From: Candidatus Magasanikbacteria bacterium RIFCSPHIGHO2_02_FULL_48_18
GTDB taxonomy: Bacteria; Patescibacteriota; Patescibacteriia; Magasanikbacterales; UBA922
DNA length: 64,000 nt
Reading direction: 5' to 3'
NCBI GenBank assembly: GCA_001784285.1
Contig: MFQC01000008.1
Location: 90,599 to 154,598 of the forward strand
In this document: piece by piece, positions 4,070 to 55,096 of the stretch
Layout: each line of letters begins with the position of its first letter
How positions within the stretch are numbered: position 1 is the stretch's first letter
Notes under the pieces: generated by a model
Databases searched by the model: none
What the model was told of the DNA's origin: nothing
What the model saw: only the letters and a program-made list of their open reading frames with translations
Translations under genes and position numbers: made by a program

Positions 4070-4076
4070 GATCCTT

Positions 4077-4989: not shown

Positions 4990-4995
4990 AAAAAA

Positions 4996-5984: not shown

Positions 5985-6422
5985 TTATTCAATCAGTCCT
6001 TGTTCATTTATAGTGATCGTTTCCGTTTGATTTGTTGCGCTGTTCAAAAGAGTAATGGCGCCTGTGGCAGACGGCAGACCGGTTGAGGTGGCAAAGGTGA
6101 TCTCTGTATTTGCGGTAAACGTAATGGTATCGGGGAGCGTAAAAAGATTGTCTTCTGCGACGACGCGGGTGGCATAGGTATTGCCTTGAAATACGGTATA
6201 TGAAGAATCTTGCATATACACGCCGAAACGACTATTGTGCGCCCCGTATCTTGCTTTTGTCTCAGCTAATCGCAGTTGTTCCACAATGTCTGCTTTGCTC
6301 GAATCAAGCATGCTCACCCGCAAGAGAGCGTCATACAATGGTATGGACACGGACAAAAGGATAATGCCGAGTGCAATGACGACAATAACTTCAATCAAGG
6401 TAAACCCGGGCCGTGCGGTCAT
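5985..6422 (-). CDS. Prepilin-type pseudopilin (start taken at MTARPGFTLIEV)
   Basis: RPGFTLIEVIVVIALGIILL is a canonical prepilin cleavage/methylation motif. Confidence 0.8.
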   Translation of the reverse strand: MTARPGFTLIEVIVVIALGIILLSVSIPLYDALLRVSMLDSSKADIVEQLRLAETKARYGAHNSRFGVYMQDSSYTVFQGNTYATRVVAEDNLFTLPDTITFTANTEITFATSTGLPSATGAITLLNSATNQTETITINEQGLIE

Positions 6423-6435
6423 AGGGCAACTGCAT

Positions 6436-7548: not shown

Positions 7549-7551
7549 AGG

Positions 7552-11425: not shown

Positions 11426-14400
11426 TCATTCGCGTTTTTTTCGTATGATGCCAAGAAATACGACCCCCGCGCCTTGTATGATCCGTTTTACCGCCGCACC
11501 TCGAAAATGCAAAACAGCCGCGAGACCAAGAGAAAGAACGCCGCTTGCCAGAGCCGTACCGTATGATGACCCGGCATCATTTCCCGGAGCAAATGTTTGA
11601 ACAGCCAAAAAATCTTCTGTCTTTTCTGCCGCTTCTTCTTCATCATAAAAATCAATATCATCCAAAGAGCGAGGGAGCAAACGATATCCGGATTTGGTTT
11701 GGCTCACAACGCCAACCACCGAAACCGATTGGCCCGCGCGGATGTCTTTTCGCACAATGCCGGTTTCTTTTTTGATTGCAACCACGATTTCTCCTGTACC
11801 GTCGTCTACAATAATCGTGGAGCCGTTGCTTTCGGTGACATCTCCTTCAACTCGCGCGAGTCCTCCTTCAAAGGTTTCACCAATGTCGATAATGGGAACC
11901 GCGTCCGGATTGGGCGGAGCGAGGACGCCAATTTTTTCAATATCCGTTTCCTCGGCCACTTTGATCCGCGTTTCTCCCTGGATCTCAGATAATTCTCCGG
12001 ACACATTCACCAAATCGCCAACCGCAAGCTCTGGAAATTTTTTTGCGTGTTGATACACCTGCACCCCGCCCTGCTGTACTCCGTCGGCGATATTCACATC
12101 CATAATATACAAATACTGCGATCCCAAAATACCGGGCAACACAATAACGACTCCCTGCACGCGCACGCGATCGCCAATCTCGTACTCACGAATTTGTTCG
12201 AGTGTGGTATCAATACCGGAAAGCGGCACCGGGCCGCCCGATACGTTTGAGTTTGACACAGAAACCGACTGAAATACATTTTTAAATTCCGGCGTACTCT
12301 CCATGGTCCATGACCATTTTCCGTTTTCATCTGCCGCGTAAGACGCGCCTTCGGGCGGGCGGTCATACAACACTTCCTCTGCAACCGATCCATCCGGAAA
12401 AAACAACCGAACCGCGTCGGCATCGTTGTTGAGCGCTATTTTTGTGTCTCTTCGCTCAAAAACGATGTAGGACAGCGGATCAATCATGGTTCCTTCGGGA
12501 AAGACATATACCTGCGATCCGCCGTCTTCGTCGTCCAGAGCAAACCCGGAAATATCAACGGTCGAGGTGGAAAAATTGGCAAGTTCAATAAATTCTTCTT
12601 CATCAGAACCAATAGGGTTGGGAAGAAATTCGGAAATATGAACCATTACAGAAAATGAACTGGACGACTGCTGTTCACTCTTTGAAGAAATGCTCTTTTC
12701 TGCCGGTTGCGCTATTGAAAAAACATTTGATTTTCCCGGCGTCGGCGTTGCTGTCCAAAGCCACTCGTCGTCCGTATCAATGGAATAACTTTGCGCTTCC
12801 GGCGCAGGCCCGGAATACGCAACCGATTGAGCAATTACTCCTGTCGGTGACCGCAGACTAACCGTATCGCCGTCCCCATTATTGAGCACAATGCCGGTGA
12901 TATCGTTCGACAGAAGCAAAAAACTTTTTGCCGCAATGGTGGTTGTGGAAAAAGAAAATAATTTTCCCGATGCATCAACCAATGACCACCCGGAAAGATT
13001 TGCCGCCGCGGATGATGGATTATACAATTCAATAAATTCTTGCCCGCTGTCGTTGCCGTGCGGGTTGGGAAAAACTTCGCTCATAATGACCGGAGTTGTG
13101 GACGCCGCGGCGGTAGGGATAGATAAGAGAGACGGCGACGCCGTTGGCAAAATAACGATATTGACTGACCCCTTGGTAACAATGGTTGTCACGGCAAAAT
13201 CCGCGCTATCGGCATTGGTATCTTTTCCATCTCCAATACGAGCCAAGCTCCAGGGGTCGTCTGCTTTTGGCGCGTTATCCGACACATTCCCGTCATTCCA
13301 TGATCCGTAACAAACCCGGTCAATTTCTTTCCCGGTCGGATCCATAAGTCGAAGCAAATCGCCGGCATTATTCAAGCTTCCTTTCGGCTCTGCAAGAACA
13401 AAAAATTCATGCCCCCCAACCGAACCCTTCAACAGTGTTTTTGCCGTGCTTCCGTCTTCAGCCCACCAGCCATCGAGCATAATCGCCGCATTGTTTGGAT
13501 TATAAAATTCGACAAATTCTTCAGCTCCGTCCGCGGGATCGGACACCAATTCATTAATACGAATATCTCCAGGCTGAAAGCTGACTATATTCCCGAGAGA
13601 TCCGGTATTCCCCGAAGCGGGCGGTGGATTTTGCGCCGGAGATTCTAAATTTGTTTGCGGCGGGGCCACAATACTATTTGGCGCGCCCTTGGTCGGCGTT
13701 GTCGTGATGGCAAAGTCGGCTGAGTCGTTATTGGTATCCGCGCCATCCGCAATGCGGGCAACCGAATACGGATCGCCCGCGACCGGCGCAGTGACTGCTG
13801 TTGAAGATGCCACGTCCCCGAACACGCCATACGTCACGCTATCCGCCACCATTCCGCTTGGATCGGTAAACTGAATGCTGTCGCCCGCATTATTGAGCTT
13901 ATTGAACATTTCAAAAACGACAAATCCATTTCCTTCAATGGTCGTGGTCGGCGAGACAAGAACGCCGGCGCCATCGTGAATTTGCCATCCTATAAGGTCG
14001 GCGTCCGATGTTCCGGTATTGTATAGTTCAATCCATTCTTTTTCTCCGGATACGGGGTCGGAAACAAATTCATTGATGATAATAGCGGGAACGCCTTTAC
14101 TCGCCTCGCCACCATCAGCCGTGTCGGCGGGCGTACTTTCTTTTTTTGGCAATAATTGGGGCTTCCCGTATACGACCAAATTTTTTGACGCGACAGCCAT
14201 CGCGCCATGAACGTCACTCACCATAAGAGTCGCGACTATTTTGGCTGAGACGGAAAAAGTGTGAAAGACCGTACCCCCGCTGTCCTTTTGTCCATCGCCA
14301 AAATCCCAAGCGTATGAAAGCGCATCGCCGTCCGGATCGGTTGATGCGGACGCGTTGAAAAGAACAGGGTGATCCACCAAAAGAAGGCTTGGATACACGG

Positions 14401-15151
14401 AAAAAGAAGCGGCCGGCGGCTGATTGGCCAAAATCGGATCATTCGGCGCGTCCTGAAGAGGCGGTTCTTCAGCCGGTTCCGCCGTATTTTGCGGCAAAGA
14501 CCCGGGGTCGGCCTGGGGGGCTGGTTCGGATGCCGGAGCCTCTTCAGGTTTGGTCTCTTCGGGCGGAGATTCGGATTGAGATTCTGCCGTCCAATAGTTT
14601 ATATCCCCCACAGTCGCCCCCGAAGGATGTTCTTTCCAATTTTGTGCGGAATAATCCGCCAAAGAAAGATCAATTCGCTCAAGCGACCCATTTCCTGTTA
14701 TGCCCATATATGAAAATACTTCAATAAACGCGTTACTTCCCACGCCGGACTTGAGACCGATTTCTTCTCCGGTTTTTTTCAATCCAGTTGTCCAGGAGCT
14801 GTCAAAAACCGTTACGGTTTGATTGGTTGGGTATGCGGTCAAAAATGCCTGGCTGTTTTCTGCAATCAGCGCATATTCGCCGGGGTCGAGCGTGGCGTCA
14901 TTGCCTTGTACAAGGGTAAGGCTGTGATTTGTTTGATCTTCCCAAAATTTCCAGCCGTTTATGTCAACCGGCGCTCCACCGATATTGACAATCTCGATCC
15001 ATTGTTCGCTTTTTTGCGCGACGCAGGCGGTGGGACAAATTTCGGTAATCACGACCCCTTGTCCGTCTCCTCTTGCCAAAGACGGAAATAAAAAAACACT
15101 CCCGAGGATGACAAACCCAAAGAGTGTATTCAAAAACGAATGCGTTTTCAT
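11426..15151 (-). CDS. Large secreted protein with 5 lamin-tail domains (LTD), a PKD domain, a C-terminal OB-fold and a C-terminal TM anchor
   Basis: Signal peptide MKTHSFLNTLFGFVILGSVFLFPSLA. Five LTD-like repeats (ITEICPT...EWIEIVNIGG..NGWKF; INEFVSDP..EWIELYNTG..IGWQI; INELVSDP..EFVEFYNP..DGWW; SEVFPNP..EFIELYNPS..SGWSL; SEFLPNP..EFIELANFS..SGFAL). PKD-like ASASTDPDGDALSYAWDFGDG. C-terminal OB-fold-like segment and a hydrophobic tail. Confidence 0.8.
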   Translation of the reverse strand: MKTHSFLNTLFGFVILGSVFLFPSLARGDGQGVVITEICPTACVAQKSEQWIEIVNIGGAPVDINGWKFWEDQTNHSLTLVQGNDATLDPGEYALIAENSQAFLTAYPTNQTVTVFDSSWTTGLKKTGEEIGLKSGVGSNAFIEVFSYMGITGNGSLERIDLSLADYSAQNWKEHPSGATVGDINYWTAESQSESPPEETKPEEAPASEPAPQADPGSLPQNTAEPAEEPPLQDAPNDPILANQPPAASFSVYPSLLLVDHPVLFNASASTDPDGDALSYAWDFGDGQKDSGGTVFHTFSVSAKIVATLMVSDVHGAMAVASKNLVVYGKPQLLPKKESTPADTADGGEASKGVPAIIINEFVSDPVSGEKEWIELYNTGTSDADLIGWQIHDGAGVLVSPTTTIEGNGFVVFEMFNKLNNAGDSIQFTDPSGMVADSVTYGVFGDVASSTAVTAPVAGDPYSVARIADGADTNNDSADFAITTTPTKGAPNSIVAPPQTNLESPAQNPPPASGNTGSLGNIVSFQPGDIRINELVSDPADGAEEFVEFYNPNNAAIMLDGWWAEDGSTAKTLLKGSVGGHEFFVLAEPKGSLNNAGDLLRLMDPTGKEIDRVCYGSWNDGNVSDNAPKADDPWSLARIGDGKDTNADSADFAVTTIVTKGSVNIVILPTASPSLLSIPTAAASTTPVIMSEVFPNPHGNDSGQEFIELYNPSSAAANLSGWSLVDASGKLFSFSTTTIAAKSFLLLSNDITGIVLNNGDGDTVSLRSPTGVIAQSVAYSGPAPEAQSYSIDTDDEWLWTATPTPGKSNVFSIAQPAEKSISSKSEQQSSSSFSVMVHISEFLPNPIGSDEEEFIELANFSTSTVDISGFALDDEDGGSQVYVFPEGTMIDPLSYIVFERRDTKIALNNDADAVRLFFPDGSVAEEVLYDRPPEGASYAADENGKWSWTMESTPEFKNVFQSVSVSNSNVSGGPVPLSGIDTTLEQIREYEIGDRVRVQGVVIVLPGILGSQYLYIMDVNIADGVQQGGVQVYQHAKKFPELAVGDLVNVSGELSEIQGETRIKVAEETDIEKIGVLAPPNPDAVPIIDIGETFEGGLARVEGDVTESNGSTIIVDDGTGEIVVAIKKETGIVRKDIRAGQSVSVVGVVSQTKSGYRLLPRSLDDIDFYDEEEAAEKTEDFLAVQTFAPGNDAGSSYGTALASGVLSLGLAAVLHFRGAAVKRIIQGAGVVFLGIIRKKRE

Positions 15152-15248
15152 ATCCCCCCTTGTTAAAAATGAAAATGAAACAATGTTCTTTCTCTATTGT
15201 ATACAAATTTTCCGCACTGTCCACCAAAACACCTGTGGACAATTACGT

Positions 15249-18994: not shown

Positions 18995-19032
18995 AAAGAG
19001 CCCCGATGGCTATCGGGGTTCTTTTTTGGATG
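18995..19032. terminator. Bidirectional terminator hairpin between PBP1A and dnaN
   Basis: AAAAAGAGCCCCGATGGCTATCGGGGTTCTTTTTTGG: a GC stem flanked by an A-run and a T-run. Confidence 0.7.
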
Positions 19033-19059
19033 AATTTTGACGAACGCGCGGCAAAAAAA

Positions 19060-20190
19060 TTATTGCCGGATAGGCATGACGATATACACATAGTCGTGCG
19101 ATGATTTTGGACGAAACAAACAGGGCGACTCAGCACTATTCACACAAAACTCAACGTCCCCGTCACCCATGTGCTGGACGCCGTCGATAACATACTTATG
19201 ATTGAGCAGAATTGAATTTTCTTCTCCCCGAACGTCCGCGTCAATTTCCGAGGTGTGCTCTCCGGTCTGGGTGCTGGTAGACGAAATACCAACCGTTTTT
19301 TCTTCCACATTCAAATCAAACGCAACCGCGTTCACTCCGGTTGTGGTAAATAAACTTGCCGCCTTGATTCGTTTGATAAAAACATCGGCCGGAAACGTTG
19401 CCGTCGTTTTGAACGAGGCTGGAATAATTTGTTCGTAATCCGGATACGCGCCGTCAATGAGCCGGCTCACCATTTCGCACTGCTCAAACCGAAGCGCTAT
19501 CTGATTGGCGCTCACAAACAAATGGATATCTTGTTCTCCCCCATCTTCCTTGAGGACCAGCAAAAGACGAATCATCTCGGATGCTGTTTTTGCCGGGACA
19601 ATGCAGTTGACGGCGTTTGTGCCCTGAGACACCACAGCGCGCTTTTCCGCCAGCCGATACGAGTCTGTCGCGGCCAAAAGCAATCCATCGTATGATGGAG
19701 AAAAAAAACGGAAACAGATGCCGGACAATTCCGGCCGAATTTCATTTTTTGCAACAGCCACAATCGTTTTTGCAAGAGCATCGCGATACAGGCTTGCGTT
19801 TATTTGATATTCAGTGCCCTCTTCAATGTGCGGTATCACCGGAAATTCCTCGGCGCTTGTTCCTTTTATTTTTGTGCTCGAGTTTCCGCAGGTGAGATGC
19901 AGTTCGTTATCGCGGAGTTCCAAAACAACCTGCTCCTCCAAAAGAAGCCGCACAAAGTCGGTAATCGTTTTTGCTGGCACGGTAAACGATCCCTCTTGTT
20001 CAATCTTTGCCCGAACCGTCATGTGTATTGCAATCTCAAGATCGGTCGCAATAAGCGCCACGCGGGACGCTGTTGCCTCAATAAAAATATTGGAAAGAAT
20101 GGGAAGATGGCTTTGTCTGTTCGCAACACCGCTCACCCCATCGAGAGCATGGGAAAGGTTTTCCCTTGTGCACGTAAACTTCATAATCAA
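19060..20190 (-). CDS. dnaN: DNA polymerase III beta subunit (sliding clamp)
   Basis: 376 aa with N-terminus MKFTCTRENLSHALDGVSGVANRQSHLPILSNIFIEA, typical of DnaN, located immediately downstream of dnaA. Confidence 0.9.
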   Translation of the reverse strand: MIMKFTCTRENLSHALDGVSGVANRQSHLPILSNIFIEATASRVALIATDLEIAIHMTVRAKIEQEGSFTVPAKTITDFVRLLLEEQVVLELRDNELHLTCGNSSTKIKGTSAEEFPVIPHIEEGTEYQINASLYRDALAKTIVAVAKNEIRPELSGICFRFFSPSYDGLLLAATDSYRLAEKRAVVSQGTNAVNCIVPAKTASEMIRLLLVLKEDGGEQDIHLFVSANQIALRFEQCEMVSRLIDGAYPDYEQIIPASFKTTATFPADVFIKRIKAASLFTTTGVNAVAFDLNVEEKTVGISSTSTQTGEHTSEIDADVRGEENSILLNHKYVIDGVQHMGDGDVEFCVNSAESPCLFRPKSSHDYVYIVMPIRQ

Positions 20191-20445
20191 ATAAATAAAT
20201 GAAATAATTATTGATTGATGGTTATTAGGGGGTGTGAATAGGGGGGATAAGTGTTATTTTTCTTTTTGTTGGGCCGTGTTTATGGTGTATATTTTTTTTG
20301 AAATGTGTTGTGTATTTGTGTTTTGTTTGTGTTTTGGTGTGTATGAATTTTTTCTTTTCTTTTTTGTTTGTGTATATGTTTCATTGTGTGGGGACACGTA
20401 TGGGATAATTGTCTGTGCGCAGAAGGAGACATCCACAGGCTGTCC
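20191..20445. promoter_or_regulatory. dnaA-dnaN intergenic origin-associated region: an AT-rich candidate unwinding element, a DnaA-box-like GGGGGATAA, and a ~200-bp strand-asymmetric GT-rich low-complexity tract
   Basis: AAATAAATAAATGAAATAATTATTGATTGATGG AT-run, GGGGGATAAGTG at 20242, then long GTGT/TTGT repeats. No credible ORF. Confidence 0.5.
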
Positions 20446-21825
20446 CTACATTCTTTCCGCGTAAAGCTGTTGTTTAATGGATTCTATTTCTTGTTTTAAT
20501 TTGAGATCATTTTCTATTTCAGTCAAAATTTTTGTGTGGGCATGCATGGCGGTGGTATGGTCTCTCCCGCCAAGCTCGTCGCCAATCGCAGGATAAGACA
20601 TTTTTAATTCCTGTCGGAGGAGAAACATGATGATTTGTCTCGGGAAAGACAGTTTTTTTTCTCTGCTTTTTCCGACAATATCGTCGGTGCTGATGCCATA
20701 AAATTTTGTCACGGCGCCGATAATGTCTCGCGGCGTCGAGGATTTGCGGAGATTGTTCGGTTCGAGGTTGGAAAGGATCGCACGAATGGTTTCTTTGGAA
20801 GGATCTATATTTTTGAGATTATGGAAGGCAATGATTTTGTTGAGTGCTCCTTCGAGCTCTCGGATATTGCTTTGGACATGAACCGCAATGAGCTGGGCGA
20901 CATCTTCTTCGAGCGGAAAATCTTTTTCCTGCGCTTTGGCCTGGAGAATGGCGGTTCGCGTTTCAAGATCTGGCGCGGAAATGTCGGTAATCATTCCCCA
21001 CTCAAATCGGCTTCGCAGGCGGTCTTCAAGGGAAGGAATGGCTTTTGGTGGTCTGTCGCTTGTCAACACGACCTGCTTTGATTGCTGGTGGAGCTCGTTG
21101 AATGTATGAAAAAACTCTTCCTGTGTTTGTTCTTTCCCCCCGATAAATTGGATGTCATCAATAAGAAGAAGGTCCGTGCCTCGGTATCGCTCTTTAAAAT
21201 GTGCGGTTCTGCCTTCTTTGATGGAAAGAACAAATTCGTTGGTGAATTTTTCTGAGGTGACGTATAAAATTTTCAACTGAGGATTGTTTTCAAGCATTTT
21301 TTGCGCAATCGCCTGAAGCAGGTGGGTTTTGCCAAGGCCCACACCTCCATAAATGAAGAGGGGGTTGTATGCATCCCCGGGACGGGACGCAACCGCCTGA
21401 GCCGCGGCATGGGAGAGTTCGTTGCCTTTCCCCACAATAAATGTGGAAAAGGTATATTTGGGATTGAGGCCAAACCGCGTGGCGAGTGTTTGTTTTTTTT
21501 CGGAGTAGATGGGAGTCTTTGCGCTTGAAATTGCAGGCATTTCGGAAAGCGCGCATTCCATTTCGGCAATATGTTTGATATTTTCGACATGGTATTCTAT
21601 TTTTTTCACCGGTTTTCCTGTGACATGCTCTAGCGTTTTGACAATATCGGAATGGTATTTTTTTTCAAGCCAGCTTTTGGTAAAGGCATTGGGGACACAG
21701 ACCGCGACTTCACCCGAGGAAAATTTGGCGATGCCGGTGCTTTTGAACCATGTGGTGAAATTGGCTTTTGAAAGTTTGAGTTCAAATTCAGCAAGAACAG
21801 CCTGCCAAATTTCATAATTCGTCAT
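20446..21825 (-). CDS. dnaA: Chromosomal replication initiator protein DnaA
   Basis: AAA+ Walker A GGVGLGKTHLL, Walker B LLLIDDIQF, sensor motifs and a C-terminal DnaA-box-binding helix-turn-helix (domain IV) region. Confidence 0.95.
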   Translation of the reverse strand: MTNYEIWQAVLAEFELKLSKANFTTWFKSTGIAKFSSGEVAVCVPNAFTKSWLEKKYHSDIVKTLEHVTGKPVKKIEYHVENIKHIAEMECALSEMPAISSAKTPIYSEKKQTLATRFGLNPKYTFSTFIVGKGNELSHAAAQAVASRPGDAYNPLFIYGGVGLGKTHLLQAIAQKMLENNPQLKILYVTSEKFTNEFVLSIKEGRTAHFKERYRGTDLLLIDDIQFIGGKEQTQEEFFHTFNELHQQSKQVVLTSDRPPKAIPSLEDRLRSRFEWGMITDISAPDLETRTAILQAKAQEKDFPLEEDVAQLIAVHVQSNIRELEGALNKIIAFHNLKNIDPSKETIRAILSNLEPNNLRKSSTPRDIIGAVTKFYGISTDDIVGKSREKKLSFPRQIIMFLLRQELKMSYPAIGDELGGRDHTTAMHAHTKILTEIENDLKLKQEIESIKQQLYAERM

Positions 21826-22018
21826 AGAACGGAAAGAAAAAGATGGAATAGACCCATTTTATCATAGCGTTGCTGTTTAAAAAATGGCTTTATAAAGCCA
21901 AAAAGTGGGTAATATGGGGATAAGATGTGGATAGTGGGGATAAATGGCTCAATCTTGACATATTCTTAGTTTATCATATATACTATGCGTACTTTTGCAT
22001 AGACCTCATTTTTTTCGT
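21826..22018. promoter_or_regulatory. Origin-proximal DnaA-box cluster and the divergent dnaA/rpmH promoter region
   Basis: Three tandem DnaA-box-like 9-mers TGGGGATAA (21914), TGTGGATAG (21925) and TGGGGATAA (21934). Downstream is TTGACA...TATCAT/TATACT, a promoter-like pair. Confidence 0.6.
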
Positions 22019-27965: not shown

Positions 27966-28397
27966 TTAGAATTTTTTTTTGTATTCATCAACAAAAATCA
28001 GCCCGACCCCTGCGAGAATCATTCCGTCGGCGATATTGACGACTGATGTCCATATCCGAAGATAATCAACCGTAAAGCCAAAGAATATCCGGTCAAAAAG
28101 ATTGGAGAGCGCGCCGACAATAATAAAAAATAATCCAAGCGTCACGAGGGTGTGTTTCTTTTTTTGGTGCAAGAGAACAAAAAGAAGCCAGAGCAGGATA
28201 AGCGATGTAAGGCCAATGAGAAGCGGGGAGGGGAAAGGGAGGCTGAAGGCGATGCCTGGATTTTTATAATAGTCCCAGCCAAACCATTGGAAAGAGGGAA
28301 AAAAGAATGGGTCTCGCATCGCGATGTATTTGAATATGCGATCAAAAAATAAAAAAAATCCTGTAATAAGAAGGGAAGACAGGATTTTTTTGTGCAT
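27966..28397 (-). CDS. lspA: Lipoprotein signal peptidase II
   Basis: Four-TM protein with conserved YYKNPGIAFSLPFP (N-x-G-x-AFS) and LSNLFDRI...VVNIADGMILAGV (F-N-x-AD) motifs. Confidence 0.8.
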   Translation of the reverse strand: MHKKILSSLLITGFFLFFDRIFKYIAMRDPFFFPSFQWFGWDYYKNPGIAFSLPFPSPLLIGLTSLILLWLLFVLLHQKKKHTLVTLGLFFIIVGALSNLFDRIFFGFTVDYLRIWTSVVNIADGMILAGVGLIFVDEYKKKF

Positions 28398-28819: not shown

Positions 28820-29039
28820 ACGGATAGTGATGCACGTCGTTTCTATGGCAAAATCAGAAGAGAGAAACTGGGCGGCTGTGAATAAAAGGTATGAAGAAGT
28901 ATAGCCTACAAAGGGTTTTTTATCAATAGTTATTATACGAAACCTCTTCTGAAAAAACAATGACCACCCAAAAGAAAAGCAAAAAGCAACAGAAGAAGAA
29001 AAACAAATAAAAAAGGGCAATCAACGCCCTGGGTAATTG

Positions 29040-29350
29040 AATGGCGGATCGCCCTCAAATTCCCCAAGCGTCGTCATGTCAGATGATGCGGAAAAAGGTT
29101 TAAAAATCTGTTTCCACATCATCTGACAAGACAGATCATCCGGGGGATGATAAGCCCTTCTACCGCTCTAAAGGTGGAAACTCTCCGCGTACCGGCCGAA
29201 AGGCACAGGACACATAATGGAGAGCGACCGAAGTCCGAACTTACCGCATACACAATAGTTCATTCTTCCCTAAGCAATTGTGCAGGGGAAAGTCCGGAAA
29301 AGAGAGCAGTGAAAAGGGAGTGATGCTGTTCCCAACGAAATGACGTTGTG
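29040..29350. other. Structured non-coding region (candidate small RNA/leader) with two perfect hairpins
   Basis: Hairpin 1: GTCAGATGATG (29078-29088) pairs with CATCATCTGAC (29118-29128). Hairpin 2: ATCATCCgggGGATGAT (29135-29151). A GGAAAGTCCGG segment follows. No ORF of convincing quality. Confidence 0.3.
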
Positions 29351-29414
29351 AACAACATTCTTTTCATAAAGAGCAAGATATAATCAGTATAGCAGTTTTT
29401 TTGAAATATGTCAA

Positions 29415-29574
29415 GAATAGCGTATACATTTTAATTTTTTGCTAAAATAAGCTATTTATTAAGTTTTTCGTATAGAATAGTATATACAAATGATGTCTTT
29501 TTATGGGATTTATCCCCAATTATGCTAAGTTTCCCACAGAGTTATCCACAATGTGTAGAATAGTGTATACAAAG
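29415..29574. promoter_or_regulatory. Three direct copies of a GAATAG-(C/T)GTATACA(A/T)(A/T) motif plus two DnaA-box 9-mers, upstream of the Cys-rich lipoprotein gene
   Basis: GAATAGCGTATACATT (29415), GAATAGTATATACAAA (29475), GAATAGTGTATACAAAG (29558), TTATCCCCA (29510) and TTATCCACA (29542). The first copy is preceded by TTGAAA at -35-like spacing. Confidence 0.55.
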
Positions 29575-29836
29575 TTGGACGTCGGACTTCAGACATCAGA
29601 CTTGTTATCTTGGCTGTTCGACGTTTTCCTATAGGCTTTGACAGTTACAAAATACTTTGATACACTTTCCAGTTCCCCGCCATGCGTCATATTGTGTGGT
29701 TTGGGGCGTCTTTTGATTGAGGCGCGTTTGTTTGTTGCAATGAACACAGGCGTCTGCACAGCACATCGGTGTTGTGCAAAACAGAAGAACAATTCGGTTT
29801 TTGTTTTAGCGCGAGCAGTGGCTGCTCGCAAGGAGA

Positions 29837-32455
29837 ATGCCCGTGAAGACGACGCTGGTTCTTTTTGTTCTTCTTCTGGCGGCCCTGTTCGGGGCCTGCC
29901 GGGAGGAAGAAGTGGTCTACGACGCCCCCTACCTTGAGGTCTCGACCGAGTCGGACCTCGGGGTGGCGGCGCTGGATCTGACGTTCGTCCAGATCGCTGA
30001 GGGGCAGCGATATCTGGCGAACAAAGAGACCGGGGAGGGCTACTCGGTCGAGGTCGGATGGGATCTTCTCAAAAAGAAGTTCGTCATCCGGATCGATCGA
30101 AAGACCGGGGATCCGGACCACCCGCCGTTCATTCATGTCCTCAGCGCCACGGACGTGGTGTTTGAGGATACGGATGCGGCGTACGTCCACATCCTCGGTC
30201 GCAACACGGACGGGCAGGCCGTGGCAGTCGCGGGGTTCAAGCTGGACCTCACGCTCCAGGGACAGGTGCCGGTGACGCTCCAAGCGTTGGCCGGTAAATG
30301 CGACCTGGACGGCGACGGCACGCCGGATTGTGGGATTGATGGCTGCTGCGACGAGGACTACGAACCGTTCCTCGCCGACTGCAACGACAACGACCCGGCC
30401 GTGTCTCCCATCGCGTGGGAGATTCCGGCATGCGTGCCGTGCGAAAACATACCGGATTACTTCTGCCTTGGCAGCACGGCCTCGTACGAGTGCACGTGCC
30501 AGGCAGAAGCCGTGTGCAGCGCGGCATCGTGTGTTGCGGATGAGTGCCAAGAGACGGCGCTCGACTGCAACGACAACGACCCATGCACCACGGACGCGTG
30601 TGATCCGGCCACGGGTTGCACGGCCGTGCCCGTCGACTGCGATGACGACGAGGCCTGCACGGCAGACGCGTGTAATCCCAACACCGGTGTGTGCGAGTAC
30701 ACGCCCGCATGCGGGGATTGCGACACCAACGAGGAGTGCGACGACGAGAATCCGTGCACGGACGACCGGTGCGATGTGACGACTGGGGCGTGCGAGCATA
30801 CGCCCAATACGGCCACATGTAGCGACGGTAGCCTGTGCACGAAGAACGACGGGTGCATTGACGGGGAGTGCATTGGCACACCCATCAACTGCGAGGACGG
30901 CAGTGCGTGTACCACGGAAGACACCTGTCATCCCGGCACTGGCCTGTGCATTTACACGCAAGCCGACTGCGATGACGGTGTGGCGTGCACCGTTGACTCG
31001 TGCGATGTCGAGCTCGGATGCGTCAACACGCCGGACGACGGGACATGTCCGGACGGCGATCTGTGCGCCATCCCCACATGCGATGTGGCGGATGGGTGCA
31101 CGTACGTGCCGGTCGACTGTAACGACGGCAACGAGTGCACCACGGACGCGTGTGATCCGGAGACGGGCGATTGCATCCACATTCCGTCGTGTCCGATCTG
31201 TACGTCGGACGCGGAGTGCAACGACGACAATTCCTGTACGGACGACACGTGCGATCCGGCAACTGGGTGCGTCAACGTCGACAACACGGCGCCGTGCGAC
31301 GACGCGAACGCCTGTACCGAGGGCGACACGTGCCAGGGCGGCGAATGCGTCGGTGGGTCGCCTGCCGACTGCAACGACAACGACCCGTGCACGACAGACT
31401 CGTGCGATCCTGTCGAGGGGTGCGTCAATATGGGCGAGTGCCCGCCGTGCCTTTCGGACGCCGAGTGCGACGATGAGAACGTCTGCACGGATGACGCGTG
31501 CAACCCGGCCGTGGGTTGTATCAATACCCCGCAGAGCGGGGCGTGCGAGGACGGCAACGGGTGCACGGGAAACGACGCGTGCCAGGGCGGCACGTGCGTG
31601 GGCGGTACGCCGATCAACTGCGACGACGGGAACGCGTGCACGGCAGATGAGTGTTTTGGAGGAGGCTGCGTTCATAGCGCTTTCTCCTGCGACGACGGCA
31701 TTGCCTGCACCAACGACTCGTGCGACGCAGCCATCGGGTGCGTCAACGCACCGGTCAATGGCCTCTGCGACGATGGGGATGCGTGCACCCTTGACCTCTG
31801 CAGCGAAACAGAGGGGTGCCAGGCCCTGCCCATCGACTGCAACGACGGCAACGCGTGTACGGACGACGTCTGCGATCCGGTGCAGGGCTGCGTCTATACC
31901 TCGACCTGTCCGACGTGTGAGTCGGACGAGGAGTGTGACGACGGCAACCCGTGCACGGCAGACGCGTGCGACACGGTTCTTGGGTGCGTGAATGCCCTTC
32001 CGGACGATCCGGAAATCGACAGCATTTGCGCGCCCTGCGACGACGGCAACCCCTGCACCGTCCCCGATGTCAGTGGTCTCACGACCACGTGCGAGGACAT
32101 CGGGGTTGACCCCGCCGTAGGCGGGGGCGGGGCTTGCCTCACAACCGCGAACGCGGCCACCTCCGATTCACTCGGCTTTGTCTGCTTTGGAAAGACTCCA
32201 CCAAAACAGTATCAAGACGTGTGGATTGAGGTGGTTTCGGGCGTGCCCGGCACGCCCAAGTTCAAGGTTTCAAGCGGCGCCTACGTCTACATCGGCGCCG
32301 CGGACTCAATATCGATTCGGGTTTTGACCACCGGCACGTCGCCGGAGGTTGTGGACCCGATTGACTACGGCTGTCACTGCCTCGTGGGCGAGGTGGTCTC
32401 GGGCCAAAACATCGTGGTGGATGATAAGGGGCCGCTCCTTGTCTGTCCGCCATAA
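29837..32455 (+). CDS. Secreted lipoprotein (872 aa) made of ~30 tandem cysteine-rich repeats (C-[ND]-D-x-N-x-C-T-x-D-x-C-[DN]-P-x-x-G-C), with distinct N- and C-terminal domains
   Basis: Lipobox LLAALFGAC. More than 120 Cys residues in a regular ~19-20 aa periodicity. GC ~65% with GC3-biased codons, unlike the rest of the window. The repeats resemble myxobacterial-type Cys-rich repeat families. Confidence 0.85.
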   Translation: MPVKTTLVLFVLLLAALFGACREEEVVYDAPYLEVSTESDLGVAALDLTFVQIAEGQRYLANKETGEGYSVEVGWDLLKKKFVIRIDRKTGDPDHPPFIHVLSATDVVFEDTDAAYVHILGRNTDGQAVAVAGFKLDLTLQGQVPVTLQALAGKCDLDGDGTPDCGIDGCCDEDYEPFLADCNDNDPAVSPIAWEIPACVPCENIPDYFCLGSTASYECTCQAEAVCSAASCVADECQETALDCNDNDPCTTDACDPATGCTAVPVDCDDDEACTADACNPNTGVCEYTPACGDCDTNEECDDENPCTDDRCDVTTGACEHTPNTATCSDGSLCTKNDGCIDGECIGTPINCEDGSACTTEDTCHPGTGLCIYTQADCDDGVACTVDSCDVELGCVNTPDDGTCPDGDLCAIPTCDVADGCTYVPVDCNDGNECTTDACDPETGDCIHIPSCPICTSDAECNDDNSCTDDTCDPATGCVNVDNTAPCDDANACTEGDTCQGGECVGGSPADCNDNDPCTTDSCDPVEGCVNMGECPPCLSDAECDDENVCTDDACNPAVGCINTPQSGACEDGNGCTGNDACQGGTCVGGTPINCDDGNACTADECFGGGCVHSAFSCDDGIACTNDSCDAAIGCVNAPVNGLCDDGDACTLDLCSETEGCQALPIDCNDGNACTDDVCDPVQGCVYTSTCPTCESDEECDDGNPCTADACDTVLGCVNALPDDPEIDSICAPCDDGNPCTVPDVSGLTTTCEDIGVDPAVGGGGACLTTANAATSDSLGFVCFGKTPPKQYQDVWIEVVSGVPGTPKFKVSSGAYVYIGAADSISIRVLTTGTSPEVVDPIDYGCHCLVGEVVSGQNIVVDDKGPLLVCPP

Positions 32456-41407: not shown

Positions 41408-42052
41408 ATGTCCGAAACAACAAAACGGGTCGTTTTATGGGGGGGAACCATTCTTGGTCTTTTTTTATTTGTCGTGCTTTTGGCAAAGTTGGGCGCCGGA
41501 GGCTCGTCCGGGGTATTGTCAGATGACGTCGGCCCCGATGATCACACGCAAGGAACGCAGGGAGCGGCGGTGGTGTTGATCGAATACAGCGATTTTCAAT
41601 GTCCTGCCTGCAAGGCCACGTATCCGATAGTCAAAAAGATTGCAGAAGAATATCAGGACAAGATTCTTTTTTCCTATCGCGATTTTCCGCTTGAGCAAAT
41701 TCACGCCCAGGCATTCTTGGCGGCGCAAGCCGCAGAGGCGGCCGGAATGCAGGGAAAATTTTGGGATATGCATGATGTGTTGTTCAATACGCAAGCAACA
41801 TGGTCGGGCATCGGCGCGGCGGAAGATTTTTTTGTAGCGCTCGCCGATTCCATTGGCCTCAACCAAGAACAATTTAAAGCGGATTTGTATTCTGATTCGG
41901 TAAAAAAGAAGGTTCAGGACGACATCGAATCGGGCAATGCATCCGGCGTCAATGCCACACCCGCGTTTTTTCTCAACGGAACACAAATAACCCATCCCGG
42001 ATCGTATGACGGATTCAAAAAAATCATTGATGATGCACTTGCCAATTCCTAA
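41408..42052 (+). CDS. DsbA-family thiol:disulfide oxidoreductase with N-terminal membrane anchor
   Basis: Thioredoxin fold with active site C-P-A-C (YSDFQCPACKATYP) and an N-terminal TM helix. Confidence 0.85.
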   Translation: MSETTKRVVLWGGTILGLFLFVVLLAKLGAGGSSGVLSDDVGPDDHTQGTQGAAVVLIEYSDFQCPACKATYPIVKKIAEEYQDKILFSYRDFPLEQIHAQAFLAAQAAEAAGMQGKFWDMHDVLFNTQATWSGIGAAEDFFVALADSIGLNQEQFKADLYSDSVKKKVQDDIESGNASGVNATPAFFLNGTQITHPGSYDGFKKIIDDALANS

Positions 42053-42506
42053 ATGGCTCCCGTTCGCATTTCTTCTTGTCTCATTTCTTGGTTTTTTGGA
42101 TGCCACCTATTTGACCGTTGCCCATTATGGCGGCGTTGCCCTGGTGTGCGGCGTATTTCAAGGATGCGATGTGGTCACGACGAGTTTGTACGCGACCGTG
42201 TTTGGCATTCCGGTCGCGCTCTTGGGAGCCGTCTATTATTTGGATGTATTTTTCTTTACCCTTCTCTATATTGACACTAAAAAACCGCTCTTTTTTCTTT
42301 TGGCGGCCGGATGGACCGTTGCGGGTCTTTTTGCGTCTGCATGGTTTATGTATCTGCAATTATTTGTCATCCGGCAAATATGCATCTATTGCATCGGGTC
42401 GGCCGCAACGTCGGCGCTTTTGTTTGCATGTGCCGTTTTTTTTGTCTGGCACGGCTTGAAACAAATATCGAACCCGCATCCTGGAGAGCCGCCAGTTCTA
42501 TCATAG
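42030..42506 (+). CDS. Vitamin K epoxide reductase (VKOR) family protein
   Basis: Four-TM protein with the C-x-x-C redox motif (CIYCIGSAA) and loop cysteines (CGVFQGCDVV), directly downstream of DsbA. Confidence 0.8.
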   Translation: MMHLPIPKWLPFAFLLVSFLGFLDATYLTVAHYGGVALVCGVFQGCDVVTTSLYATVFGIPVALLGAVYYLDVFFFTLLYIDTKKPLFFLLAAGWTVAGLFASAWFMYLQLFVIRQICIYCIGSAATSALLFACAVFFVWHGLKQISNPHPGEPPVLS

Positions 42507-49588: not shown

Positions 49589-49707
49589 ACCCCGCCATTG
49601 TGGAATGACGGGGCTGTGAGGTATTGAAGAACCCACCGTTGGATCCGCGTTGGGTCGCCTGCCCCGATGAACATCGGGGCGGAAGGCAGTGCGGTGGTGG
49701 GTGTGGT

Positions 49708-50076
49708 TCAGACGGGCGGCTCGGTCCCCTCGATGAACAAGAGGACCTTGTCTTGAGGGGAGAAAATACGGATCTTGTCCTCCCTGGTGCGCTGCGGAAT
49801 TGGTCCATAGATCTGGCGGGCGATGCCGGCCGCCGCGCCGGTGATCTTCACATAAACCGGCCATGCGAATGGGTCACCTCCATTCCAGACGGCGAAGACC
49901 GCATTGCTGGCCAGGAGACCAAACTTGGTCTCCTTTTGCACGGCGTAGAACTGGTCGGGTACGCCAGCGGTCAGTCTTCCGTCCTTGTCAGCGAGGTCCT
50001 CGCGCACCTTTTTTTTGATTCCATTGAAATAGACAGCCGCCCCCTGGTTGATTTCTCTGAATTTTTTTGTCGGCAC
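49708..50076 (-). CDS. Hypothetical protein (122 aa) in a GC-rich mini-islet
   Basis: Only protein-like ORF in the ~500-bp ~60% GC segment between gpmI and the ABC-2 cluster. The overlapping plus-strand ORF is low-complexity and G/R/D-rich, suggesting antisense. No family recognised. Confidence 0.4.
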   Translation of the reverse strand: MPTKKFREINQGAAVYFNGIKKKVREDLADKDGRLTAGVPDQFYAVQKETKFGLLASNAVFAVWNGGDPFAWPVYVKITGAAAGIARQIYGPIPQRTREDKIRIFSPQDKVLLFIEGTEPPV

Positions 50077-50199
50077 GACCTTCTCTCTCCTTGCCCATTT
50101 TGGGCGGTTGATTTGGTGGATTTATATACAAAAAAAAGTCTGCTGTCAAGAGGAAGGGAGGTTCGGACAAGATAGGTTGTTTTTGGTATACTTTGCCCC

Positions 50200-51003
50200 A
50201 TGTCATTCACAGCTAAAAAATATTTCACAACGTATAAAAATTCCCTGAGCCAATTTTTTCAATATCGGCTCAATTTGGGTTTGCTTGTGGTGAGCCATGT
50301 GGTGAGTTTGAGCGGTCTTATTTATTTGTGGATCGCGGTGTATGCGGCCGGGCAAACCGTAGGGACATATTCGCTTGAGCATATATTGGTGTATTACATT
50401 GTGTTGACTATTTTGCATATTACCATTTCGGAAGGGGTGGGGATGGGATTTGAAGTCTCGGATCATATCAAAGATGGCGTCGTGACGAATTATCTCGTCA
50501 AACCGTTCAGCTACTCCATTGAACGGCTGGTAAAAATGCTCGGGCAGGTGACGATCAATGTTTTTTTTATTATTCCGGTTATCGCAGTTCTTCTCATTAT
50601 CAAGCCGGACAGCATCCCATCGCCGTCTATCCTCCAATGGATGCAATTCGCAGGCATGGCGTTTATTGGCCTTCTGTTTTATTTTCTTTTGTATTATGCG
50701 GCCGCGCTGTCTTCTTTTTGGCTTCACCAGGGGCGTGCAATGGTATTTGCATTATTGTTGACGAGCAATTTGCTCAATGGTTCTCTTCTCCCGCTCGATA
50801 TGTTTCCGGACTGGTTTCAAAAATTGAGCCGCGTGTTGCCATTTACGTATTTGATTTTTTTGCCAATCCAAACCCTTCTCGGCCGGATTGAGGGGTGGGG
50901 ATTCTTGCTTTTGGTTGCGTGTCTCTGGGCTCTTGGCTTGTCTTTATTTATTTTTTTGATTTGGAAACGGGGAATTCGACGGTTTGAAGCGGTGGGAAGA
51001 TAA
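50200..51003 (+). CDS. ABC-2 family transporter permease, type A paralogue (copy 1)
   Basis: ~6-TM 267-aa protein ending ...WKRGIRRFEAVGR. Paralogous to 51817.. and 53425.. Confidence 0.75.
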   Translation: MSFTAKKYFTTYKNSLSQFFQYRLNLGLLVVSHVVSLSGLIYLWIAVYAAGQTVGTYSLEHILVYYIVLTILHITISEGVGMGFEVSDHIKDGVVTNYLVKPFSYSIERLVKMLGQVTINVFFIIPVIAVLLIIKPDSIPSPSILQWMQFAGMAFIGLLFYFLLYYAAALSSFWLHQGRAMVFALLLTSNLLNGSLLPLDMFPDWFQKLSRVLPFTYLIFLPIQTLLGRIEGWGFLLLVACLWALGLSLFIFLIWKRGIRRFEAVGR

Positions 51004-51018
51004 ATGTGAAGAAATTGT

Positions 51019-51807
51019 ATGACGAAGTATATACGATTATATGGCGCGTTTTTTCGCGCCAATTTCATGAAGGCGACTGCGTATCGAGGCAATTTTTGGC
51101 TGTATGTCCTATTGACCGCGCTCGAATCTATGACCGTCTATATTGCCATTGCGGTATTGTTTCTCCATGTAGAGACAATCGCGGGGTGGAGCTATCATGA
51201 CATGTTGGTTCTGAGTGGTATTTTTATTATCACGAACGGTTTGTCATGGATATTGTTTCGCGCGAGTGTGATGCAGTTGGATCAAATGATTACGAGCGGA
51301 GATTTGGATGGAAAACTCACAAAGCCGGTTGACGCACAGTTTTTGGTGTCGGTCGAGCGCATTGATATTGAAGACGTGGGGAGGTCCTTTGTGGGTATTG
51401 GCATACTGTGGCTCGGGCTTCGGGGAACGCCGCTGTTTTCGTTCGCGACCGCGTTGCCGTTTTTTTTGATTATGCTTGTTTCCGGACAGATTATTTTATA
51501 TAGCATTATGCTCCTCGTCAAAGTCATCAGTTTTGCGTCGATCCAAGGGTGGTCAACCAATGCAATTTCCTGGCGGTTTCATGACCTTTCTCGGTATCCC
51601 ACCGACATCTATACGGGTATGATGCGGGTGATCTACACCTTTGTTTTTCCGCTTGTTTTTATTGCAACCGTTCCGGCCAAGGCGCTCATTGGGCGATTGA
51701 CTATGCCATTCTTTTTTGGCTCGCTCGTTGCCGCCGCAATGAGTTTTGCCGTGGTTCGTTTTTTTTGGGTGCGAGCATTGCAAAAGTACACGAGCGCTTC
51801 AAGCTGA
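51019..51807 (+). CDS. ABC-2 family transporter permease, type B paralogue (copy 1)
   Basis: 262-aa 6-TM protein ending ...RALQKYTSASS. Paralogous to 52642.. and 54228.. Confidence 0.75.
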   Translation: MTKYIRLYGAFFRANFMKATAYRGNFWLYVLLTALESMTVYIAIAVLFLHVETIAGWSYHDMLVLSGIFIITNGLSWILFRASVMQLDQMITSGDLDGKLTKPVDAQFLVSVERIDIEDVGRSFVGIGILWLGLRGTPLFSFATALPFFLIMLVSGQIILYSIMLLVKVISFASIQGWSTNAISWRFHDLSRYPTDIYTGMMRVIYTFVFPLVFIATVPAKALIGRLTMPFFFGSLVAAAMSFAVVRFFWVRALQKYTSASS

Positions 51808-51816
51808 TTTTTTTCT

Positions 51817-52617
51817 ATGCGACCATATATCTCCGCTTTTCGCATGAGCTTGTCCGAACAGGTAACATACCGATTTGGATTTTTCTTTGCGCGTCTCCGC
51901 GGGCTGTTTGTGCTCGTCACTTTGTTTTTTGTGTGGTCGGCCGTGAGCATGAAAACCGGCTTTTTTGCCGGCTATTCGCGCGAGGAACTCATGACGTATG
52001 TGTTTGGCGCTCATATATTGCGTTCGCTGGTTTTTGGATCGCAATCGCGAAGAATCGCATCCGAAATTCATGATGGAACGTTTTCGCTTTTTTTGGTTCG
52101 GCCGGTGAATCATTTTCTTTTTTATTATGCGCGTGAGCTCTCGGAACGATTGCTCCTTGGTTTTTTTGCCGTTTTGGAAGTGGGTATCATAGTGGTTTTT
52201 TTTGATAGTACATTTCTTTTTCCCAGCCATCTCTCTGTTTTCTTTTTTGTCTTTCTGTCGGTATTTTTGTCGCATATGTTGTATTATTGCATGAGCTATG
52301 GCATGAGCATGCTCGCATTTTGGTCGCGCGAGGCCATGGGGCCGCGATTTCTTTTTGAGTGGATTTTGGAATTTTTGTCCGGCGCGTTTTTTCCAGTTTC
52401 GATTGTCGCCACCAATGTTGCTCTCGTTTTTTTGTTTTTTGCCCTTCCATTCATCTACCTTGTCTTTATGCCGCTCACGATCTATCTTGAGCGAGTGCCG
52501 GGGAATCAGCTGTTTCTTTCTTTTGTGTGGCAAGGGATGTGGATTGCGATTGTTGCGGGCCTTCTTCGCGCGCTATGGCGGCGGGGATTGAGGGCATATA
52601 CGGGGGAAGGGATATAG
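51817..52617 (+). CDS. ABC-2 family transporter permease, type A paralogue (copy 2)
   Basis: 266 aa, C-terminus ...WRRGLRAYTGEGI. Confidence 0.75.
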   Translation: MRPYISAFRMSLSEQVTYRFGFFFARLRGLFVLVTLFFVWSAVSMKTGFFAGYSREELMTYVFGAHILRSLVFGSQSRRIASEIHDGTFSLFLVRPVNHFLFYYARELSERLLLGFFAVLEVGIIVVFFDSTFLFPSHLSVFFFVFLSVFLSHMLYYCMSYGMSMLAFWSREAMGPRFLFEWILEFLSGAFFPVSIVATNVALVFLFFALPFIYLVFMPLTIYLERVPGNQLFLSFVWQGMWIAIVAGLLRALWRRGLRAYTGEGI

Positions 52618-52641
52618 GGATATACTGACAAATAGACATGT

Positions 52642-53421
52642 ATGAAATACGTTCGCGTGTGGGTCCAATTGGTTCATTGCGCATTTTCAAGTTATGCATC
52701 AAACCGCATTGATGCAGGTTCTTATTTTTTGGGCAAACTGATTCGTTTTGGCTTTTTTTGGCTGTTTTTTATTTCGCTTTTTCATTATACGGATTCTTTT
52801 GCCGGCTACACCAAGTGGGAAACGCTTCTCTTTTTTGTCACGTTCAATCTGGTGGATGTATTGGGCCAGGCATTGTTTCGCGGCATTTATTTATTTCGCA
52901 ACGATATACGCAAAGGAAATTTTGATTGTATTCTTGTGAAACCGCTCAATAGTCTTTTTTATATTCTTTCTCGCTTAACAGATATCCTGGATATTTTATT
53001 TTTGGCGCCGCTTGGTGTTGCATTGTGGTATGTGGTTATTCATTTGCCACCGCTTCCGGCCGCATCCTTTTTTTTGTATGCGTTATTTTTGTTCGTTGGC
53101 CTTGTCATTGTGCTTGGCATTCACATTCTTTCCGCCGCGCTCACCATATGGAGCATGGAAAGCGAGGGGATGATTTGGTTTTATCGCGACGCAACCGCGA
53201 TTGGGCGGTTTCCGCCGGAGATATTTTCCAAGCCCATTCAATTTGTTTTTACGTTTTGTTTGCCCATTATCGTCATGGTTGCGTTTCCAGTCAAAATGAT
53301 GCTTGGGGCGCTCCCGCTTTTTTGGGCCATGATGGGGTGTATTATTGCGTTGGTTTTTTTGATTGGAGCGCTTGTTTCGTGGCGCGTCAGTGTGAGGCGA
53401 TATTCCAGCGCTTCAAGTTAG
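52642..53421 (+). CDS. ABC-2 family transporter permease, type B paralogue (copy 2)
   Basis: 259 aa, C-terminus ...VRRYSSASS. Confidence 0.75.
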   Translation: MKYVRVWVQLVHCAFSSYASNRIDAGSYFLGKLIRFGFFWLFFISLFHYTDSFAGYTKWETLLFFVTFNLVDVLGQALFRGIYLFRNDIRKGNFDCILVKPLNSLFYILSRLTDILDILFLAPLGVALWYVVIHLPPLPAASFFLYALFLFVGLVIVLGIHILSAALTIWSMESEGMIWFYRDATAIGRFPPEIFSKPIQFVFTFCLPIIVMVAFPVKMMLGALPLFWAMMGCIIALVFLIGALVSWRVSVRRYSSASS

Positions 53422-53424
53422 GAC

Positions 53425-55016: not shown

Positions 55017-55096
55017 CGCGAGACACCGTCAATTTTGCTCTATTCAGGCTAAAATGTTCATGGTATAGTACTGTGTACCTGCCTATTCTCTGTCTT

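Follow-up and report, generated by a model that had tools for sequence, protein, structure and literature searches.

A GC-rich Dicty_CTDC-repeat lipoprotein gene at a variable site in a Candidatus Magasanikbacteria genome, with signs of horizontal acquisition

Introduction

How did a GC-rich gene for a long, cysteine-rich lipoprotein come to lie among the core genes of a groundwater bacterium of the candidate phyla radiation (CPR) with a small genome, and what might its product do at the cell surface? The question is raised by a 64,000-nucleotide stretch of DNA from Candidatus Magasanikbacteria bacterium RIFCSPHIGHO2_02_FULL_48_18 (assembly GCA_001784285.1, contig MFQC01000008.1, positions 90,599 to 154,598), referred to here as the window. 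The gene encodes repeats of the Pfam family PF00526 (Dicty_CTDC), and we call it the CTDC gene. Our reading as a whole, held with moderate confidence, is that it encodes a membrane-anchored stalk or adhesin lipoprotein and was acquired horizontally from a bacterium with a genome of about 62-65% GC. Imported surface genes are already known as an idea. What the locus adds is a clean, assembly-verified accessory surface protein in one bacterium of the CPR, whose members have largely unknown host-attachment molecules.

A lipoprotein built of Dicty_CTDC modules

The N-terminus of the protein (MPVKTTLVLFVLLLAALFGAC) has a positively charged n-region, a hydrophobic core and the lipobox L-F-G-A-C, in which Cys21 is the predicted lipidated residue. 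The layout, MPVK-TTLVLFVLLLAAL-FGA-C21, agrees with the PROSITE rule in a by-eye pattern check and bears out the lipobox lipoprotein proposed in a first-pass annotation of this DNA. The whole protein contains 103 Cys, 120 Asp, 83 Gly and 80 Thr residues. Between aa 244 and 730 the Cys-to-Cys distances repeat as 6-5-6-7, which defines a module of four Cys (spacing x5-x4-x5-x6, ~24 aa) present in ~20 regular copies; outside the regular array lie a degenerate copy at aa 221 and a partial one at aa 731. Most modules are of an A type, C-[ND]-D-x-N-x-C-T-x-D-x-C-x-P-x-x-G-C. Three are clearly of a B type, C.DG..CT..D.C.GG.C.GG (starting at aa 328, 487 and 570), and a further variant starts at aa 352. 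Only four modules carry C-x2-C linkers (CGDC, CPIC, CPPC and CPTC), each adding two Cys. The repeat motif of the first-pass annotation and its C-x-G-G-x-C-x-G-G variant are thus both present in the protein. Its figures need revision, however: in place of ~30 modules of ~20 aa with about six Cys each, the module parse gives ~20 regular four-Cys modules of ~24 aa, and Pfam scores 15 stretches.

At the DNA level the module copies are just 60-77% identical to one another, and Tandem Repeats Finder detected no tandem repeats in the gene. The array is therefore old, without recent expansion.

PF00526 was the sole Pfam family found (E = 1.6e-74; 245.6 bits, with the gathering cutoff at 27). An NCBIfam scan at E <= 1 returned no families, including any myxobacterial Cys-repeat model held in that library. 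The earlier likening of the repeats to those of myxobacteria and some eukaryotes thus resolves to Dicty_CTDC, and its myxobacterial side found no counterpart among the NCBIfam models. More than 4,200 proteins match the CTDC protein used as a query. In a search of 5.8 billion proteins, the best non-self matches are 35-43% identical over ~60% of the query, within the repeats, and their named sources are Candidatus Binatia, Deltaproteobacteria/Myxococcales, Phycisphaerae and a few CPR metagenome-assembled genomes (MAGs). None of the 119 best matches shares the N- or C-terminal domain. Among eleven CTDC proteins, pairwise identities are 26-47% throughout, without structure (38% between the window copy and a Binatia protein). 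Judged by its sequence, the CTDC gene is a further member, with orphan end domains, of a repeat family that is already known.

The best-studied members are slime-mold spore-coat proteins such as SP75, to which the chicken cysteine-rich eggshell membrane protein (CREMP) is related (PMC3068167); PF00526 is listed among families without known structure (PMC8078820). Slime-mold CTDC proteins share with the Magasanikbacteria protein the tandem four-Cys modules, which fit C-x4-C-x5-C-x6-10-C (PMC3068167), the C-T-x-D-x-C core and an extracellular location, which for the Magasanikbacteria protein is predicted from its signal peptide. Unlike it, they have mucin-like and Pro-rich repeats and belong to a cellulose coat, whereas the window protein is bacterial, predicted to be lipid-anchored, a single polypeptide and flanked by orphan domains. 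CREMP, a substrate of enzymatic disulfide formation, likewise strings together four-Cys modules that are related to those of slime molds (PMC3068167), but its spacing is C-x4-C-x5-C-x8-C-x6 and it forms a metazoan extracellular-matrix fibre with lysine cross-links. PF00526 proteins of GC-rich bacterial lineages (such as Candidatus Binatia P0002/P0007 and MAGs labelled Deltaproteobacteria/Myxococcota) share the alternation of A and B modules and have 35-43% repeat identity, GC of ~0.63 and GC at third codon positions (GC3) of 0.72-0.82. They are longer (1000-1500 aa), lack the N- and C-terminal domains of the window protein and have the composition of their own genomes. Dicty_CTDC also occurs among the surface-display modules of the variable N-terminal region of bacterial teneurin-like proteins (bioRxiv 10.1101/2025.11.11.687626); unlike these, the CTDC protein has no YD-shell or toxin domain, PF00526 being its only Pfam match.

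A compositional outlier with edges at the open reading frame

The GC content of the gene is 0.634 (GC1/GC2/GC3 = 0.605/0.512/0.785). For the 46 other genes of the window GC3 is 0.509 +/- 0.034 (range 0.421-0.578), which places the CTDC gene at z = 8.1. The GC and GC3 profile of the window thus upholds the earlier description of a GC-rich, foreign-looking gene; its neighbours, described then as AT3-biased, are in fact neutral (GC3 ~0.51). In a 100-nt profile GC rises at ~29800 and falls at ~32500, the ends of the open reading frame (ORF), and the flanking intergenic DNA has a GC of 0.41 and 0.50. Within the gene, GC3 per 50-codon block stays at 0.66-0.88 throughout, the Cys-free N-terminal 150 aa included.

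The shift affects every synonymous class: NNY codons end in C at a frequency of 0.75 versus 0.33 in the host, NNR codons end in G at 0.78 versus 0.28, and GC at four-fold sites is 0.84 versus 0.65. It extends to the amino acids, as the ratio of Gly, Ala, Arg and Pro to Phe, Tyr, Met, Ile, Asn and Lys (GARP/FYMINK) is 1.53 in the non-repeat domains versus a host median of 0.78. No such bias is seen in the likely highly expressed genes rpmH (GC3 0.475) and tig (0.472). Translational selection on NNC wobble codons was rejected as a cause, since NNR and four-fold codons shift equally and rpmH and tig lack the bias; repeat-driven gene conversion was rejected because the non-repeat N-terminus is equally GC3-rich.

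Other surface genes of the window, at 3522-9240, 11426-15151 and 59519-61840, have host-like composition, and thus the GC3 anomaly is not general to surface proteins here. They encode type IV pilus-like components (N_methyl pilin, T2SSF, T2SSE), a protein of 1241 aa that combines five Lamin-tail domains with a PKD domain, and a 773-aa BNR/sortilin-type protein.

The site is variable among relatives

In six relatives (L091, L092, L093, L094, L105 and L106) the syntenic site contains no CTDC gene. The closest relative found, L105 (NrdA 69% and bPH_2 67% identical), keeps synteny on both sides, with aminotransferase-trmA-nrdBA-ruvB-orf-bPH_2 on one and tig/LysM-M23 on the other. Four relatives (L091, L092, L093 and L106) have ruvB-orf-bPH_2-DUF1294-transketolase with nothing inserted, and in L092 the gap is 7 nt. 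A metagenome scan with bPH_2 patterns returned two short contigs only.

The only relative with a PF00526 lipoprotein at the site is L007 (38% GC), whose 800-aa protein (E = 1.1e-32) is encoded between DUF1294 and transketolase. This gene lies tail-to-tail with DUF1294, in the same position and orientation as in the window. The two proteins are 30-34% identical, and the L007 copy lacks the end domains of the window copy. Its GC3 is 0.59, with neighbours at 0.20-0.31. L092, the nearest relative of L007 (NrdA and Tkt 74% identical), has no CTDC gene. Orthology of the two copies was rejected on the basis of their 30% identity, their different architectures and the missing gene in L092; similar genes are thus not seen to descend vertically in the lineage. 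The site varies between genomes: different members of the family have occupied it on at least two occasions, and the gene is accessory rather than part of the lineage core.

The L007 record (OZ246405.1, a 1.23-Mb chromosome) was deposited as 'uncultured Gammaproteobacteria bacterium'. Judged by its local synteny and by RuvB (75%) and NrdB (88%), it fits Candidatus Magasanikbacteria, and on these grounds the deposited label looks wrong.

Import or maintained bias?

We consider it probable that the gene was imported from a genome of ~62-65% GC. Import better explains four observations: the shift of all codon classes, the compositional steps at either end of the ORF, the GARP-rich end domains and the patchy distribution. 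Comparison with other PF00526 genes is consistent with this. In genomes of 62% GC, the CTDC genes match their neighbours (Binatia L095: GC 0.629, GC3 0.72, neighbours 0.71-0.83; L096: GC3 0.82), and the GC (0.63) and GC3 of the window gene equal those of such neighbour-matching genes. In five low-GC IMG/VR contigs (L097, L099, L100, L103 and L104; 8.7-77 kb, locus GC 0.36-0.41), which are viral by database classification and may be phages or misclassified small genomes, PF00526 lipoproteins have a host-like GC3 of 0.21-0.27; at a contig GC of 0.36-0.39 it is 0.21-0.26, again like their neighbours. These lipoproteins have 36-64 Cys, are 623-624 aa long in the two scanned against Pfam, and adjoin other predicted lipoproteins. 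The family therefore needs no GC-rich codons, and a family-intrinsic GC3 requirement was rejected. The imported gene would now occupy a variable spot beside DUF1294/bPH_2/ruvB, with a promoter and a ribosome-binding site of host type.

Several results weigh against import. The donor was not found: the top match shares 40% identity across ~60% of the length, all of it in the repeats, and an exhaustive HMMER search of 1.84 billion representative proteins with aa 22-155 recovered only the query itself. No tRNA or integrase marks an island (the nearest tRNAs are ~20 kb away), no convincing repeats flank the gene, and the locus has no phage or plasmid matches. Codon choice within some families is also host-like: for Leu, CTC exceeds CTG and CTT makes up 26%, and this pattern, like the NCG preference, is nearer to the host than to the Binatia gene or L096. 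Moreover, all eight CTDC genes examined in four CPR genomes are GC3-elevated, by 0.2-0.5 over their neighbours, and transfer then needs many independent recent arrivals. Finally, the L007 copy is Lys-rich, with host-like amino acids, yet its GC3 is 0.59 versus 0.25 (Lys AAG 77/96). This is the reverse of the order expected for an imported gene drifting toward host composition. The horizontal acquisition claimed in the first-pass annotation is thus backed by the composition and by the absence of the gene from six relatives, and lacks a donor and marks of mobility. Among viral sequences, the repeat motif occurs in only 8 of 2.9 million contigs, and a whole-protein scan of viral contigs returned nothing.

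The main alternative is that the gene is a long-term resident whose GC-rich third positions are maintained, for example by codon or mRNA selection linked to export and oxidative folding of so Cys- and Asp-rich a protein, or by GC-biased gene conversion within a recombining family of surface genes. Composition would then carry no information on transfer. We regard this as unlikely, but the missing donor and mobility marks, the host-like Leu and NCG choices and the L007 copy keep it alive. A maintained bias would account for the elevation of every CTDC gene in the four CPR genomes (0.785 versus 0.51 in the window) and for the host-like amino acids combined with GC-ending codons in L007. It would also fit the occurrence of a CTDC lipoprotein at the same site and in the same orientation in the window and L007. 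In two further genomes, the Magasanikbacteria genome L087 (CTDC GC3 0.84 and 0.94 versus 0.32-0.52) and the Azambacteria genome L088 (four CTDC genes, GC3 0.70-0.85, versus 0.29-0.53 for neighbours), the elevated genes are interleaved with genes of normal GC, which also speaks for this alternative. Against this explanation, the low-GC IMG/VR copies argue that there is no family-wide constraint. The shift of NNR and four-fold codons along with NNY does not fit tRNA-wobble selection. A shift that runs evenly through the N-terminal domain and breaks off at both ends of the ORF is unlike repeat-driven or tract-based conversion; the GARP richness of the protein outside its repeats is a further point. 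The gene is also missing from six relatives, and the window and L007 copies are, at 30% identity, no closer to each other than the window copy is to the Binatia protein.

The L088 locus (GCA_016234725.1) is itself a mosaic. Three non-CTDC genes with a GC of 0.63-0.70, at 4933-9044 and 13871-14278, lie beside the four GC-rich CTDC genes. The first of the three starts with a signal-peptide-like N-terminus, and the block is broken by a gene for a 135-aa protein with a GC of 0.37. One island does not account neatly for this arrangement, and nor does a gene-specific bias.

A bolder extension of the import reading is that CPR episymbionts repeatedly capture GC-rich CTDC stalk genes from bacteria of high GC, which might be their own hosts, insert them at a few surface-gene hotspots, add lineage-specific end domains and use them as determinants of host attachment or host range. 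We consider this doubtful. If true, it would explain both the eight of eight un-ameliorated GC3 islands in four CPR genomes and the unrelated copies at one site in two distant Magasanikbacteria. The GC3-island status in four CPR genomes may outweigh the gene itself in importance: if general, it would point to recurrent flow of adhesin-like genes into CPR bacteria, and perhaps to the identity of their partners.

Predicted structure and role of the protein

An AlphaFold2 model of the full-length protein, built on a 24-sequence alignment, predicts for aa 244-720 a chain in which each module forms one beta-hairpin (predicted local distance difference test score, pLDDT, ~80-92). The end domains have a pLDDT below 50, and the C-terminal 173 aa, modelled as a single sequence, reach 36. 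In a Foldseek search with the modelled array, the sole significant match in the PDB was the Cys-rich region of the Entamoeba histolytica HgL heavy chain (9gjg_H; E = 1.6e-6, probability 1.0, 476 aligned columns); the two rods are long and flexible, which keeps the TM-scores low. A phmmer search of PDB sequences returned nothing at E <= 0.01, HgL included.

The Cys-rich part of HgL (PDB 9gjg/9gjb/9gja) is an elongated arm, rigidified by interdomain disulfides, that belongs to an adhesin, and it is likewise built of ~20-residue modules on antiparallel beta-strand pairs (PMC12948311). Unlike the CTDC protein, HgL is a transmembrane glycoprotein of a eukaryote and has a lectin light chain, and the two share no detectable sequence similarity. 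By this analogy the CTDC protein would work like the HgL arm, without being a member of the HgL type.

Taken together with the lipobox, the model and the analogy point to a likely role as a rigid, disulfide-bonded extracellular stalk or adhesin. The lipoprotein would be exported by the Sec system, lipidated at Cys21 and then cleaved by LspA, whose gene lies nearby; no gene for Lgt was seen among the annotated genes of the window. The 102 remaining Cys would then be oxidized outside the cell by the resident DsbA-VKOR pair. Pfam confirms both members of this pair, ~9 kb downstream, as the earlier annotation had it, and we infer that they fold the CTDC protein. They are resident machinery and not a co-acquired partner, since their composition is host-like and a VKOR is also encoded in L092, which has no CTDC gene. 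Each of the ~20 modules would form a small beta-hairpin, and the hairpins would stack into a stiff rod held by disulfides, with a probable length of tens of nanometres. Such a rod would join the unique, membrane-near N-terminal domain to the unique ~120-aa C-terminal domain, which would be its membrane-distal end.

The same gene, with the same origin, could instead encode a cross-linked component of the envelope or coat, held by intermolecular disulfides or by polysaccharide binding. The spore coat of the slime mold Dictyostelium and CREMP, the best-studied relatives, are structural disulfide-rich matrices (PMC3068167), which lends this role some analogy, as does the placement of CTDC genes in L087 and L088 beside Wzy and glycosyltransferase genes for surface polysaccharides. 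Although the mature protein has an even number of Cys (102), its C-x2-C linkers could be redox-active. We think a coat role improbable all the same: the predicted lipid anchor and the single-copy terminal domains better suit a tethered, end-presenting molecule than a matrix, and the one PDB structure that resembles it forms the arm of an adhesin complex (PMC12948311).

The CTDC genes of L087 and L088 adjoin genes encoding Wzy_C and GT4 glycosyltransferase domains, which hints at a link between CTDC genes and surface-polysaccharide loci.

Integrity of the locus and its neighbourhood

The exact protein is encoded on 19 contigs, including those of the Candidatus Magasanikbacteria MAGs GCA_001783045.1 (a 264-kb contig), GCA_001783105.1 and GCA_003485625.1. 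Six loci were fetched (three from NCBI MAGs, two from ENA MEGAHIT assemblies and one from Logan), and their DNA is identical over the gene and up to 10 kb of each flank; they show no polymorphism and represent one population. Identical DNA and junctions in six independent assemblies exclude a chimera. That a high-GC fragment was joined into a CPR contig by assembly or binning is thus barely credible despite the abrupt GC jump and the lack of a known close CPR homologue, as the six assemblies come from different groups and assemblers, the ORF is intact behind a host-type promoter-like site and Shine-Dalgarno sequence in an AT-rich flank, and GC steps up and down right at the start and stop codons.

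Core genes surround the CTDC gene on both sides. Those upstream are dnaN, dnaA, rpmH, rnpA, yidD, tig, LysM-M23, comM, lspA and a dksA-type zinc finger gene; those downstream are DUF1294, bPH_2, ruvB, nrdAB, trmA, an aminotransferase gene and the genes for the DsbA-like protein and VKOR. The parts of the CTDC gene, its expression signals and the candidate maturation genes are listed in Table 1.

Table 1. Coordinates in the window of the CTDC gene, its parts and signals, and the genes proposed to act on its product
Feature	Coordinates	Strand	Evidence
LspA (signal peptidase II)	27966..28397	-	Pfam PF01252, E = 2.9e-21; host-like GC3; 1.4 kb upstream; putative link to the CTDC protein
Promoter-like site TTGACA-17-TACACT with TG	29638..29666	+	consensus scan only; host-like AT-rich DNA
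Shine-Dalgarno AAGGAG	29830..29835	+	sequence
Coding sequence, 872-aa CTDC-repeat lipoprotein	29837..32455	+	ORF list; exact protein matches; Pfam PF00526; GC3 0.785
Signal peptide and lipobox, aa 1-21 (...LFGA/C21)	29837..29899	+	sequence; PROSITE lipobox pattern
Cys-free N-terminal domain, aa 22-155, predicted beta-rich	29900..30301	+	no homologue; AlphaFold2 pLDDT <50; GC3 0.74-0.86
Irregular Cys-rich transition, aa 155-243, including the degenerate module at aa 221	30299..30565	+	Cys spacing; module parse
Array of ~20 Dicty_CTDC modules, aa 244-730	30566..32026	+	Pfam; Cys spacing; module parse
C-terminal region, aa 731-872: partial module, then ~120-aa Cys-poor domain	32027..32452	+	sequence
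DsbA-like and VKOR, overlapping (41408-42052; 42006-42506)	41408..42506	+	Thioredoxin_4 1.9e-30, DSBA 6e-15, VKOR 6e-23; GC3 0.51; putative link to the CTDC protein

Expression signals and other features of the window

The AAGGAG sequence lies 1 nt from the annotated start, ATG 29837, and 7 nt from GTG 29843. This spacing favours GTG 29843, two codons downstream, which is probably the true start.

The leader upstream of the CTDC gene (29021-29836) is non-coding and unusually long, at ~0.8-1 kb. No gene remnants (e.g., of transketolase) were identified in this 1-kb spacer, and its comparison with Rfam gave nothing real. It contains a near-perfect hairpin with 29-nt arms (29073-29132), two DnaA-box-like sites (at 29510 and 29542) and three copies of the motif GTnTAGAATAGTrTATACAAA (~29410-29430, 29470-29490 and 29553-29573). 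The motif recurs in the window at 1467-1481 (minus strand) and 15120-15207, and may be a lineage-specific promoter or -10 element.

The cumulative GC skew of the window has its minimum near 20 kb, and three DnaA-box-like sites lie at 21915-21943, between dnaA and rpmH. The 19000-22000 region is, on this pattern, probably the replication origin oriC, which would place the CTDC gene ~8-10 kb away on the leading strand.

Further downstream, a 610-nt segment (49590-50199) has a GC of 0.56 and no convincing gene on the plus strand, where the listed ORF gives an implausible protein. A minus-strand ORF at 49708-50076, with A8 runs on either side, is possibly a frameshifted gene. The segment matched nothing in Rfam, and its fold z-scores are -3.0 and -3.8. 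It is followed by six tandem paralogues of ~260-270 aa (50200-55016) with strongly negative AT skew, two of which were scanned and match ABC2_membrane_6. An ABC ATPase gene follows this sixfold permease array (array and ATPase together at 50200-56074), an unusual arrangement.

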